64,000 nt of DNA. Origin: Eledone cirrhosa. Lineage: Eukaryota. Positions 8,581 to 50,479 of this stretch are shown here, piece by piece. Every line of letters begins with the position of its first letter. The first letter of the stretch is position 1. A program made the position numbers and the translations under genes. The notes beneath the pieces are model-generated. The model had not been told where the DNA came from, did no database searches, and saw only the letters and a list, made by a program, of their open reading frames with translations. The stretch covers positions 29,016,001 through 29,080,000 of the forward strand of contig OZ024756.1 in NCBI GenBank assembly GCA_964016885.1, read 5' to 3'.

Positions 8581-8775
8581 AGGAAAAAGTATGACCCCGA
8601 CGGCAGAGCTCAAGCCGTTTCGACGGCTATTTCTGGCGTCCAGAAATAGCCATCGAAACGGCTTGAGCTCTGCCGTCGGGGTCATACTTTTTCCTATTAC
8701 CGACTCTACTACCCTAAGTATTGAGTACTCTGGTGCGTTATGGTCCATCTGGTTCCTTACCACGTTTCCTACGTT
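8581..8775 (+). mobile_element. Fold-back element family B (hammerhead 3' half)
   Basis: Palindrome containing GAAA-CGGC..GCCG-TC-GGGGTC, then ttgagtact..ggttccttaccac tail; in (TA)n. Confidence 0.85.
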
Positions 8776-8849
8776 ATATATATATATATATATATATATA
8801 TTAGAAAGTGAGGTTTTTTTTTACAAAATATATATATATATATAGGAAC

Positions 8850-9442
8850 GAGTTATATATATATATATATATATATATATATATATATATATATATATAT
8901 GTATGTGTGTGTATATATATATATATATATATATATATATGTATATGTATATATATATATATATATATATATATATATATATATATATATATATATATAT
9001 ATATATATAAGAGGGTGTTATATACATGTCATATGTATGTATATATATATATATATATATATATATATATGTGTGTTTGTATATATATATATGTATATGT
9101 GTGTGTGTATATATATGTGTGTGTTTGTATATATATATGTATGTATATGTGTGTGTGTATATATATGTGTGTGTGTTTGTATATATATATGTATGTATAT
9201 ATGTGTGTGTGTGTATACATATGTCTGTGTGTTTGTATATATATATATATATGTATATATGTGTGTGTATATATATGTGTGTGTGTTTGTATATATATAT
9301 ATATATATATGTATATGTGTGTGTGTATATATATGTGTGTGTTTGTATATATATATGTATGTATATGTGTGTGTGTGTATATATATGTGTGTGTGTTTGT
9401 ATATATATATATATATATATATGTATATGTGTGTGTGTATGT
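8850..9442. repeat. (TA)n/(TG)n compound microsatellite
   Basis: Directly visible. Confidence 0.95.
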
Positions 9443-9811
9443 ACAGCTAAGCAATCGAGGAGAAGAGTGACATTTGCACCATGAGAAACAGATGCAACCA
9501 TGGTAACAGGACTGACAGGTTCTATACTGCGCAGTGGTGCATAAAGAGAAACACCACAACTTTCAGGGTAGAAACATCATGTCTCTTTTGTTATAACTTG
9601 CTTTTAACTTACACCTAATTATATATGCAGACCCCGCCCCTCTCTCTCTTTCTCTTTCTCTCTCTCACACTCTATCTCCCTTTCACTTTCTCACTCTCTA
9701 TTTATCTCTCTCTCACTATCCATCCATCTATCTACCTACATACATACCCACCCATATATATATATATATATATATATATATATATATATATATATATATA
9801 TATATATATAT

Positions 9812-10015
9812 AGGAACCAGTAAGACCCCGACAGCTGAGCTCAAGCCGTTTCGACGGCTAATTCAAGACTAAAATTAGTCTTGAATTAGCCGTCGAAACG
9901 GCTTGAGCTCAGCTGTCGGGGTCTTACTGGTTCCTATTACCCACTCTACTACCTCAAGTATTGAGTACTTTGGTGCGTTATGGTCCACCTGGTTCCTTAC
10001 CACTTTTCCTTCGTT
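9812..10015 (+). mobile_element. Fold-back element family B
   Basis: Perfect ~120-bp palindrome plus conserved tail, (TA)n on both sides. Confidence 0.85.
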
Positions 10016-10329
10016 ATATATATATATATATATATATATATGATAATAAGGGCGCTGCGGAGTTGCAAATGGGTTACATATGAAAAAAGTTTGTCCTTCA
10101 TCAGTGATCTTCCAAACATCATAGGCATTTCATCGCTTTAAAGACCATATACCTCCGGTTGGTGCGAGCAACGGCTAAAAAAAGTCGTTATATATATATA
10201 TAAATATATATATATATGGGTGTGTGTGTGTATATGTATATATATGGGTGTGTGTGTGTATATATATATATATATATATATATATATATATATATATATA
10301 TATATATATATATATATATATATATACAT

Positions 10330-10621
10330 AAGCAGAAGGGATATTTAATTTGTTGGAAATTCAACAAATATAAATGTTTATAACTGATTCAGAGCCCTCG
10401 ACAGCTTTCTGGAGTAAATATTCAATGATATTAAATAAATGGAAACTATATTCATAAAAAACCATATTTATTCTATTATATATTCTATTGGAAAATTCAA
10501 CTGATAACACATTTTGTATTTTATCTGATGAAAGCGTACCAAAGTTTTTGGTACCTTGAAATATATATAATAGAATAAAATTGGTTTTATATATATAGCT
10601 TCCATTTATTTAATATCATTG
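10330..10621 (-). mobile_element. Hammerhead-bearing fold-back element, family A
   Basis: Homologous to 5168-5478. Confidence 0.8.
10517..10577 (+). ncRNA. Minimal type-I hammerhead ribozyme
   Basis: TATTTTAT-CTGATGA-AAGCGTACCAAA..TTTGGTACCTT-GAAA-TATATA-TA-ATAGAATA. Confidence 0.85.
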
Positions 10622-10712
10622 TATATATATATGTGTGTGTGTACACACACACTTATATATAGTGAATAATAAGTATGCGTAATGGGTTTTTACGTCTTAT
10701 TCTGAAATTATC

Positions 10713-10781
10713 CATTACAAATGTTTCAACAAGTTTAGTGACTGTGTTTGTTCAATAGCATCAATCTGGTCTCTTCAGATG
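10713..10781 (-). ncRNA. Degenerate hammerhead-like motif
   Basis: CAT-CTGAAGA-...-GAAA-CATTTG-TA-ATG; stems weak. Confidence 0.4.
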
Positions 10782-11676
10782 TTTTTCTGAACATTGTTTT
10801 ATCCACCCTGGAGAATCAGGGGCTGGGGTGGTGGAGAAATAAGGGAACTAATGAAATTCAATCTTCTCTCTCTCAATAAGTCGTTGTAAACAGCCATATA
10901 TATATATGTATATATATATATATATATATATATATATATATATATATATATATATATATATATATATATATCGACAGTCGATCGACTTTCATGAAATCGG
11001 ACGTTTTCATTGGTCTTTCCAATTGCTAATACTATCCATCGGCTGCAAATCCAGGTGAAATAAAGTGTCTTGCTCAAGGACATAATGCATCAGGAATCGA
11101 ACTCACAACCTCACGATTGTAAATCCAATTACACACACACACACACACACACACACACACACACACACACACACACACACACACACATATGTATATATAT
11201 ATTTATATATATATATATACATATATATATGAAAATGTGGGCACTATTACATTTGATGTAATTAATTAATTAACTAACTAACTAATTAAAACATTCCAGC
11301 CTTGGTAATGAGAACAATTATTTTTCAAATAATTACTTGAAAGACAAATCATGTGGAGATAACCCTAAAATTTCAATTAATTCAAAGTGATTAAATATGA
11401 GCTGTTGTAAGGAATGAGTGTGATCTTTCACACACACACACACACACACACACACACACACACACACACACACACACACACACACACACACACACACACA
11501 CACACACACACACACAAATGTGCTAGCCTGTTAGACCTTTACTCACCAGAGTACTTGATACTTAGGGTAGTAGAGTGTGGTAATATGAAGGATTCAGTGT
11601 TCAGAAATAGCTGTGAAAATGGCAGGAGCTCACCGGTCGGGGTCCCGAATCCTTCATATATATATATATATATATA

Positions 11677-48140: not shown

Positions 48141-48457
48141 ACACACACACACACACACACACCTAGACGCTGTATGTCTAGCTTTTACTTGCATGTGAGA
48201 TTTTGTCTGGAAGTTGTTCTGCTTCCTTGCAGCAGCAACCACAGCAGCAGTAACAACAACAACATCAGTAGCAGTAGCAGCAGCAGTAGTCACTACCACC
48301 ACAACCAGCAACAACAGTAGTAGCAGCAGTAGCTCTGGCGCTGTCGGTTGACCTAGCTTTCAAATATTCATAACAACAACAACAACAACACCGCCACCAT
48401 CTTCTCAATATCAAATCAGCTGTTTTCATTTCGTTCGTACATCAGCCGCCACTAAAA

Positions 48458-48956
48458 CTACCACTACTACTACTACTACTACTACTACTACTGCTACCAC
48501 TACTACTGCTACCACCACTACTACTGCTACCACCACTACTACTGCTACCACCACTACTACTGCTACCACCACTACTACTGCTACCACCATTACTACTGCT
48601 ACCACCATTACTACTGCTACCACTACTACTGCTACCACCACTACTGCTACCACCACTACTACTGCTACCACTACTACTGCTGCCACTACTACTGCTACTA
48701 CCACTACTACTACTACCACCACTACTACTACTGCCACTACTACTACTACTGCCACTACTACTACTACTAATACTACTACTACTACTACTACTACTACTAC
48801 TACTACCACCACTACTACTACTGCCACTACTACTACTACTACCACTACTACCACTACTACCACCAGTACTACTACTACTACCAGTACTACTACTACTACC
48901 ACCACCACCACTACTGCCACTACTACTACCACCACCACCACAACTACTACTACTAC
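48458..48956. repeat. (CTA/CCA)n trinucleotide tract
   Basis: Directly visible. Confidence 0.95.
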
Positions 48957-49260
48957 ATGCTTATGTATTTGTGTGTGAGTATCCATTTAAAAAAAAATTG
49001 TGTATATATATATATATATATACATATGTATGTGAAAAGTAAACGGATAGACAACACAGTAAAACAGTACAATGAAGATATATATTAGTTTAATTTTTGG
49101 GGGACACCCTGTATGTATAATATATATATATATATATATATATATATATATATATATATACAGGGTGTTCCCCCAAAAATTATATATATATATATAAAAT
49201 ATTAAAAAAATAATGAATAAAACAATGAAACAGTTCCTTATATTAAACAAAAAAAGTTCA

Positions 49261-49405
49261 TTATTTAACGATCGTTTCTAGGACATATATGTGTTAGAAT
49301 TGGCATGCATATTCAACAGATCTATGTACAAAATTATACAAAATTATACAAACTATCAAATTTAATATACATACCAACACATATATATGCCGTCTTCAGA
49401 AATAA
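49261..49405 (-). ncRNA. Type-I hammerhead with very long stem II
   Basis: TTATTT-CTGAAGA-[~114 nt, GGCATATAT..ATATATGTC]-GAAA-CGATCG-TT-AAATAA. Confidence 0.7.
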
Positions 49406-49409
49406 TAAA

Positions 49410-49554
49410 TTATTTCTGAAGACGGCATATATATGTGTTGGTATGTATATTAAATTTGATAGTTTGTATAATTTTGTATAATTTTGTACATAGATCTGTT
49501 GAATATGCATGCCAATTCTAACACATATATGTCCTAGAAACAATCGTTAAATAA
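49410..49554 (+). ncRNA. Type-I hammerhead with very long stem II
   Basis: Mirror copy; stem III CAATCG (one substitution). Confidence 0.65.
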
Positions 49555-49990
49555 TGAACTTTTTTTGTTTAATATAAGGAACTGTTTCATTGTTTTATTC
49601 ATTATTTTTTTAATATTTTATCTTGACTCTGTATTCCGTTTATCTTTCACCGAAAGTGATTTTTGAATGCATCTCTTCTTTCCATGATATCCGGATTACA
49701 ATGAGTTCTTCATACGGATTGGACACTACCGTAAACTCTTGGTAGATTTATCTACATATATATATATATATATTATTAAGTGTAATGAATTCTTTTACAA
49801 TGGAATTAGCTCGAAGGAGGAAATACCCCTGAGCCGTGTAGTATAATAATTAGTATACTTCATTCTGGCTAAATTTTCTTTTGCAATATATATACAGATG
49901 TGTTGGTATCTGTGTTTCATCATATATATATTAATAAAAACAATGAAATAAAAACAAAGAACAAGTTCCTTATATTAAAAAAAAAATCAT

Positions 49991-50118
49991 CATTTTACGA
50001 TCGTTTCTAGGATGTATATGTGTGTTGGTATGTATATCATATAGATCTATGTAAAAATATTACAAATTATCAGAGGAAATATACATACCTTCACATATAC
50101 AAGCCGTCCTCAGAAATG
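49991..50118 (-). ncRNA. Type-I hammerhead with long stem II (family E variant)
   Basis: CATTT-CTGAGGA-...-GAAA-CGATCG-TA-AAATG; stem I covaries relative to the 49261 copy. Confidence 0.7.
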
Positions 50119-50277
50119 TTGAGATGTGTTTATTGAAAAACAACAACAAAGATTTAATATATAAGCTCTAGCTGTTACTCTTTGTAATATAACCATACTT
50201 TACTACTCCAAGTATCGAGTACTCCATTGAGTACAGATCTCACCAGTTTCCAACTGAATTCATCCTGATATATATAT

Positions 50278-50479
50278 AACAAAGAAAGTGTGGTAAGATA
50301 CCAGGTGGGCCATAACCCACCAGAGTACTCGATACTTAGGGTAGTAGAGTTGGGTAATAGGAAAGGAGTCAGGCCCCAGACGGCTGAGCTCCGGCCGTTT
50401 TAACAGCTAGATCCAAACTGTTTGGATCTAGCTGTGGAAACGGCCGGAGCTCAGCCGTGGGAGTCCTGACTCTTTTCCT
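50278..50479 (-). mobile_element. Fold-back element family B (subfamily)
   Basis: Palindrome acggctgagctccggccgttt..agctagatccaaac/gtttggatctagct..aaacggccggagctcagccgt plus tail. Confidence 0.8.

Follow-up and report, generated by a model that had tools for sequence, protein, structure and literature searches.

How does a genome come to hold thousands of short palindromes that retain only one half of a ribozyme? The question is raised by a 64,000-nt stretch of the Eledone cirrhosa genome (assembly GCA_964016885.1, contig OZ024756.1, positions 29,016,001 to 29,080,000; hereafter the window), in which six palindromes of one repeat family, termed family B, carry the 3' half of a hammerhead ribozyme. 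The initial annotation of the window had proposed that the end of the complementary DNA (cDNA) folds back on stem II of the ribozyme, primes second-strand synthesis and thereby deletes the catalytic half. The analysis presented here leads to a different view: at the level of sequence, family B copies are insertions into (TA)n that have lost 5' sequence and lie head-to-head; they stem from an intact Hydra-type Penelope-like element (PLE), and their two arms are probably separate cDNAs that end at the start of a capped RNA.

Family B derives from an intact Penelope-like element

Family B copies share a layout in which a TA run is followed by a short arm in inverted orientation with the fixed end ...TTCCTAT, the centre, a forward arm extended by a 79-nt tail, and a second TA run. 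All six copies annotated in the window (8581, 9812, 15174, 23829, 33774, 50278) were recovered, and their centres vary from copy to copy, as had been noted. The string given for the stem II 3' strand, GAAA, stem III, GUC and the stem I 3' strand is exact at 15174 and 23829, but contains variant bases at 8581 and 9812, and the copies at 33774 and 50278 belong to a diverged subfamily; the short arm at 33774 lacks the stem II 3' strand. The core heptamer of the 5' half is absent from all six. Throughout the 3.0-Gb assembly, which is rich in (TA)n, we counted at least 13,504 exact short family B palindromes, at least 35,401 exact tail motifs and at least 5,109 matches to the ribozyme 5' half, which are lower bounds and not strictly comparable because the patterns differ in strictness. 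The palindrome pattern is not due to chance, the reversed-pattern control having returned 0.

Upstream, non-inverted family B copies continue into a common body. At locus L062, a truncated repeat precedes a full 3,549-nt unit with an open reading frame (ORF) of 724 amino acids (aa), and the 79-nt tail is the start of the body of this parent element; the same pseudo-long terminal repeat (pseudo-LTR) arrangement of a truncated copy followed by the full 3,549-nt unit was found at L236 and L241. By motif reading, the single ORF joins a reverse transcriptase (RT) to a C-terminal GIY-YIG nuclease, as in endonuclease-containing (EN+) PLEs, with RWR at 37, DKT at 117, YRDD at 348, a Cys linker and a single Cys before YIG at 606. 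A Pfam scan of this 724-aa ORF returned 0 families, and a PDB search gave no significant match. The RWK-like motif (here RWR), DKT, the lack of CCHH and insertion in (TA)n are features of the Hydra clade, and nearly all family B copies are flanked by TA runs. An inverted 5' copy combined with a tail at one end is likewise found in PLEs, and 76 of 99 census copies (see below) are short palindromes of this kind. Family B can thus be placed within a known class of elements, and its junctions make an open mechanistic question testable.

Assignment to miniature inverted-repeat transposable elements (MITEs) or other DNA transposons was rejected, as the two ends are unequal, the centres vary per copy and the parent encodes an RT. 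Non-LTR retrozymes were rejected as well: these are tandem monomers with complete hammerheads, and family B copies are single palindromes or solos. The flanks of L062, L063, L065 and L067 hold other retroelement ORFs, of the long interspersed nuclear element type or as other PLE RT pieces, within 10 kb of family B copies.

The parent carries a complete hammerhead with a variant core

The half that is missing from the palindromes is present in the parent, and the view that family B holds a retroelement-derived type I hammerhead reduced to its 3' half has held up at the sequence level. The upstream half was predicted to contain CTGANGA; it does occur in non-inverted copies, but reads ACCCC-TTGANAA-GNTCGGCTA. 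Among 64 complete copies, many of which were chosen with the TTGANAA pattern so that the count is partly selected, the core heptamer is TTGANAA in 61, CTGAGAA in 3 and CTGANGA in 0. The literal CTGANGA version had 42 genomic matches, and the 30 that were viewed are junction insertions, flanks or other repeats, with 0 family B 5' halves among them. In the matches to the 5' half, the N of UUGANAA takes all four bases. The U3-A8 pair implied by this core is a known natural covariation according to the available text of PMC3088659, and is described for PLE ribozymes in that of PMC4209133.

In its minimum-energy fold, the L062 region forms a three-way junction with the heptamer unpaired, without unusual stability (z = -0.8), and the parent folds a long stem II topped by an apical hairpin. 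Three double changes between the subfamilies B1 and B2 fall in stem II (identified by eye, the automatic consensus fold being out of register). With a complete core, a three-way-junction fold and these double changes in the parent, the original ribozyme call was right in substance, and the parent is read from its sequence as a type I hammerhead with a U3-A8 core. Rfam gave no hammerhead among the best 150 of 277 window matches, nor in the parent region.

Termination of the arms at the ribozyme cut site was considered and discarded: there is no clear excess of arm ends at the site after GUC among 99 tail arms, 12 of which end 14-27 nt upstream of the short end without a clear peak, 4 of these being internal stem III deletions. 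Two variants of the ribozyme were encountered along the way. A subfamily with CCTACTCG (L081, L155) has the core CTGAGAA, whose C3-A8 mismatch would be expected to weaken the ribozyme; this subfamily is still present in many copies. GAAA and stem III have been lost repeatedly between two GCCGTC repeats (L086, L153, L154).

Many arms stop near one position

Positions in family B are given as nucleotides upstream of the short end. In a census of tail arms (99 of the first 100 listed tail matches, contig C1), with ends set by automatic alignment and a few of them shifted by mirror sequence or internal deletions, 52 arms end between -55 and -66, 4 between -67 and -80, 11 at -199 or beyond, and 32 nearer the 3' end. 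This pile-up indicates a barrier near -61; copies that pass it mostly extend for hundreds of bases more. The contig depth of two public runs falls by factors of about 14 and 24 across this point, and loose ends joined to TA are present at both 3' ends; these data serve as a boundary check only, since the runs are of unrecorded kind, possibly from the assembly's own sample and possibly not independent. Solo, non-inverted family B copies stop at this -61 position as well, and 30 solo loci comprise 13 with the short end and 17 with the tail, so that each end acts alone.

The base at -61 is the A of TTAGT/TCAGT. It belongs to loop II, a long insert at the end of stem II, and is situated on the 3' strand of this insert. 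The palindrome centres, which had been mapped to the stem II loop, are indeed located between the strands of stem II, yet on the 3' strand of the apical insert rather than at a hairpin tip. TTAGT/TCAGT matches TYAGTY, a consensus that comes from flies and is given as the Drosophila initiator in the available text of PMC6483594; for the Penelope element of D. virilis, an internal promoter within the repeat is reported in that of PMC2377424. A downstream promoter motif matched weakly and was not used as support.

An extra G marks the turning point

The base preceding this A was compared between truncated and complete copies. Among the first 100 of 173 solo copies of the form (TA)n-N-AGTCC, N is G in 53, T in 32, A in 10 and C in 5 (by eye), a share of G that is not to be taken as a cap frequency because junctions with no extra base are omitted and G commonly interrupts TA runs. 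The same position is T in 54 of the 64 complete copies, C in 9 and G in 0, with 1 uncalled. A G after the TA run, tabulated over 100 rows, precedes a start at -61 in 32, at -60 in 4 and at any other position in 0-1 each; a further 7 rows have G before the C-variant of -61, and in 19 the G is the templated -60 base.

Palindrome centres are free of the TA confound. In 50 palindromes of contig C1 with both arms reaching the A, G is present on both arms with 0-2 nt between them in 9 and a templated C on both in 0, and single-base centres among these 50 are G/C in 11 and A/T in 2. Of 21 G/C centres fetched, 9 carry the extra G on both arms, 5 on the tail arm only and 6 on the short arm only, with 1 ambiguous; they span three subfamilies whose long copies have T at this position. 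The extra G is likely, as far as the sequences speak, to be a trace of copying the RNA cap. An extra G at full-length 5' junctions of L1 has been read in the same way in the portion of PMC11702581 available to us. Among the mostly openly accessible papers searched, none was listed that deals with a cap-derived G or with two-ended priming in PLEs.

Family C turns outside a complete core

Family C had been described as showing the same pattern as family B. This was not borne out: CTGATGA lies inside the retained arm of the family, and the arms read AGCTTC-CTGATGA...GAAACAG...CTG-TA-GAAGCT, which is the whole type I layout with a weak stem II. We examined 72 arms chosen because they extend to AGCTT: roughly half continue far upstream, and about 33 terminate precisely at the A of this motif, which is the A of (T/C)CAGC, 5' of the core. 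Family C hence turns at the outer edge of stem I, 5' of its core; the family B pattern is not shared, yet the reading of the stop as a start site is. A search for a family C 5' half far upstream gave 7 unrelated matches, a null result explained by the core lying inside the arm.

Further family C copies are located in the window at 7571-7700, 23007-23120 and 56900-56980, the one near 56952 being a solo arm that starts at AGCTT. Another hammerhead family with a canonical CTGATGA is present at 37289-37601 and 46506-46589, and also at 4265, as head-to-head pairs with a complete ribozyme per arm.

Origin of the head-to-head arms

Four observations come directly from the sequences: the parent element, two fixed 3' ends 79 nt apart, a sharp 5' stop, and a position-specific G on either or both arms. 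We consider it probable that both arms are first-strand cDNAs that were primed at the two sides of one cut, copied to the capped RNA start and joined. Transcription would begin at the A of TTAGT/TCAGT inside hammerhead loop II and yield a capped sense RNA, with the enzyme, probably a dimer, binding just downstream on the 5' part of this RNA. Both strands would be cut in (TA)n, both sides of the one cut would act as primers, and reverse transcription would start at two fixed sites and copy only about 61 and 140 nt before running off at the RNA start, where a C would be added opposite the cap; the two cDNA ends would then be trimmed and joined head-to-head. According to this proposal, the palindromes lack the catalytic 5' half because it was never part of this portion of the RNA. 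For long copies that include the whole hammerhead, reverse transcription would begin at these two sites too, this time in the RNA's 3' repeat where it had stayed uncut.

The fold-back of the cDNA on the stem II hairpin that had originally been put forward finds some agreement in the centres lying between the two stem II strands, in the long, apically capped stem II of the parent fold, and in one census copy (L098) that retains the native apical 5' strand. Against it, the other 75 of 76 palindromes keep neither a native 5' strand nor the loop, a cDNA ending at -61 would have no stem II partner, and solo copies, which have no inverted arm, share both the stop and the extra G. In families C and D the turn lies beyond an intact core, and in long copies it can lie anywhere in the body. 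Fold-back moreover predicts a longer tail arm, whereas the asymmetry observed goes both ways: in 76 short palindromes, length favours the short arm 30 times and the tail arm 19 times, with the two equal within 2 nt in 27, and 24 long pairs, classed by hand, divide into 7, 10 and 3, with 4 complex. The short arm thus often exceeds the arm from which it should have been copied, at L231 by 2.46 kb with arms that are 99.5% identical. Finally, both arms may carry the extra G with 0-2 nt between them; a hairpin would not easily copy its own last base across a loop of 0-1 nt, whereas joined run-off cDNA ends would give exactly that. Fold-back on stem II is largely refuted as the main route, and we regard it as very improbable.

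A single first strand might instead run off the capped RNA start, self-prime near its own end and copy back to the short end, with centres reshaped by later deletion. A related idea, with an antisense template, has been published for the head-to-head palindromes of PLEs (PMC3846280, in the text available), and the same data that favour self-priming are those that weigh against two-ended priming. The arms nearly always share subfamily variants in the 78 palindromes compared (exceptions include 23829, L124 and L153), long arms tend to have long partners (48 of 100 5'-half rows fall in 24 head-to-head pairs, as against 11 of 99 tail arms that are long), and the two large arms of L067 share eight same-strand A>G changes, resembling RNA editing. 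Shared variants imply that both arms came from one template, which DNA fold-back predicts equally well; two-ended priming would accordingly have to copy one RNA twice, with a second enzyme displacing the first cDNA. Several further reservations concern two-ended priming and the cap reading: the both-arm G counts come from 50 loci of a single contig, the initiator consensus from flies, and the share of G in solos is confounded as described above. In family C, the extra G is clear in 8 of about 33 truncated arms (by eye) and blurred by microhomology, and PLE-like ORF pieces near 5 of 16 fetched loci are mere candidates for its coding parent. Later deletion at palindrome centres can create arm asymmetry and could blur the length test. 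Self-priming nevertheless struggles with the G on both arms separated by 0-2 nt, with the short arm alone carrying G in 6 of 21 centres, with short arms that are longer by up to 2.46 kb (L231), and with the short end standing alone in 13 of 30 solo loci, and the published version needs an antisense template while the G sits on the sense 5' end. We therefore judge it unlikely.

The stop could also be an RNA end unrelated to a promoter, or a polymerase block (a nuclease cut or stall in loop II), with G as a favoured untemplated addition and with short masters spreading secondarily. Untemplated A tracts at some centres are in line with this idea, as is L067, which indicates that palindromes can be re-copied as RNA. 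Against it, the G is tied to a single position, is seen again in at least four subfamilies with T at this place in their long copies, and is accompanied by an initiator-like motif kept at the stop in B1, B2 and, loosely, in C; centres also vary between copies. We consider this explanation quite unlikely, and two cDNAs ending at a capped RNA start stay our preferred reading. As a separate observation, L067:5200-7260 (contig C3, near 281.48 Mb) is a nested palindrome whose eight A>G changes all fall where the sequence can form a hairpin; it looks as though read-through RNA from an older palindrome underwent A-to-I editing and was then reverse-transcribed.

Comparison with known systems

As described in the available parts of Craig et al. 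2021 (PMC8557442), Hydra-clade PLEs resemble family B in their ORF with a C-terminal GIY-YIG, RWK-like (RWR) and DKT motifs, no CCHH in the nuclease core, CxxC and CxH near the nuclease end, a hammerhead in the repeat, a (TA)n target, 5' truncation, an inverted 5' copy and a tail at one end. Family B differs by a unit of 3.55 kb (generally <3 kb in the clade), a tail of 79 nt (30-40), the U3-A8 core, and by about half of its copies stopping at one 5' position with an extra G, a feature undescribed in those parts. The hammerheads of PLEs (Cervera and de la Pena 2014, PMC4209133, available text) are also of type I with U3-A8, have an unpaired base at the 5' end of a long stem II and occur as motif pairs on opposite strands; family B departs from them in a stem III of 4-5 bp with a 9-nt palindromic loop and in a loop II that is a long insert holding the putative transcription start.

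Of relevance to the mechanism is the Poseidon element PAc of Anolis studied in vitro (Frangieh et al. 2024, PMC11167929). In the accessible text, the purified enzyme makes cuts in both strands and extends them, starting at two internal sites that delimit the tail, on an AT-rich target and without need for ribozyme cleavage, as we propose for family B; PAc belongs to another clade, and that text leaves head-to-head copies, a cap G and the RNA start unexplained. The PLE palindromes of Arkhipova et al. 2013 (PMC3846280, seen in part) share with family B head-to-head inverted repeats, a palindrome at the junction, an optional tail and an initiator-like repeat sequence. Their self-priming on an antisense template, offered as a hypothesis, contrasts with the present data, which favour a sense, capped RNA as the source of two cDNAs. 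Animal non-LTR retrozymes (bioRxiv 10.64898/2026.07.22.740005, available part) are similarly short, non-coding, hammerhead-related repeats from PLE repeats, whereas the short copies of family B are not tandem and lack a complete ribozyme.

Features of the window

Coordinates are collected in Table 1. In the palindrome at 23827..24025, two subfamily-diagnostic sites differ between the arms.

Table 1. Family B and family C features in the window (positions within the 64,000 nt).
Feature	Position	Strand	Remarks
Family B palindrome 1	8579..8777	+	inverted short arm 8579-8636, tail arm 8638-8777
Family B palindrome 2	9810..10017	+	inverted short arm 9810-9873, tail arm 9875-10017
A of TTAGT in palindrome 2	9877	+	61 nt upstream of short end; family-wide 5' stop, putative transcription start
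3' half of hammerhead, palindrome 2	9886..9922	+	stem II 3' strand, GAAA 9895-9898, stem III with palindromic loop, stem I 3' strand
Predicted cut site, palindrome 2 hammerhead half	after C9917	+	
79-nt tail, palindrome 2	9938..10015	+	first bases of parent body, between two putative reverse-transcription start sites
Family B palindrome 3	15172..15407	+	partial duplication at centre, 15236-15263
Family B palindrome 4	23827..24025	-	tail arm 23827-23967 minus, short arm 23967-24025 plus
Third, shorter arm facing palindrome 4 across TA run	24068..24110	-	
Family C palindrome	29705..29876		plus arm retains core heptamer CTGGTGA at 29832-29838
Diverged family B (B2) palindrome	33770..33947	-	tail arm reaches TTAGTT; short arm begins only at GAAA
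Diverged family B (B2) palindrome	50276..50481	-	arms meet at AGT start

Partial or older relatives of family B are found at 6276-6384, 11534-11644, 46231-46288 and 50197-50223, one of them a decayed palindrome. A 432-nt AT-rich, near-perfect palindrome at 49192-49623 matches neither family B nor family C, and other short palindromes with non-simple arms lie at 3647-3738, 21880-21963, 27358-27425 and 57557-57628. Minisatellite arrays occupy 1724-2327 (period 122), 13033-13824 (31), 28950-29505 (117), 34389-34891 (51) and 40487-41797 (54).

Implications

The origin of head-to-head copies of PLEs, and whether the sense or the antisense RNA is the template, are treated as open questions in the available portions of PMC3846280, PMC8557442 and PMC11167929. 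With more than 13,000 junctions, family B provides a single-base mark on both arms by which two-ended priming can be told apart from self-priming. It also names a candidate transcription start, and the intact ORF makes the mechanism testable in vitro. The reading given here would further account for a large class of short palindromes that might otherwise be misfiled as MITEs or microRNA hairpins. More tentatively, and with considerable doubt on our part, a start inside the hammerhead, combined with priming from both ends of one DNA cut on a single capped RNA, may mean that the 5' end of the RNA is half a ribozyme, and that cleavage by the complete ribozyme at the 3' end removes the start sites on which full-length copies depend, switching most jumps to tiny, promoter-bearing palindromes. 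If this were true, the ribozyme would act as a switch whose outcome is the tens of thousands of tiny palindromes now found across the genome.

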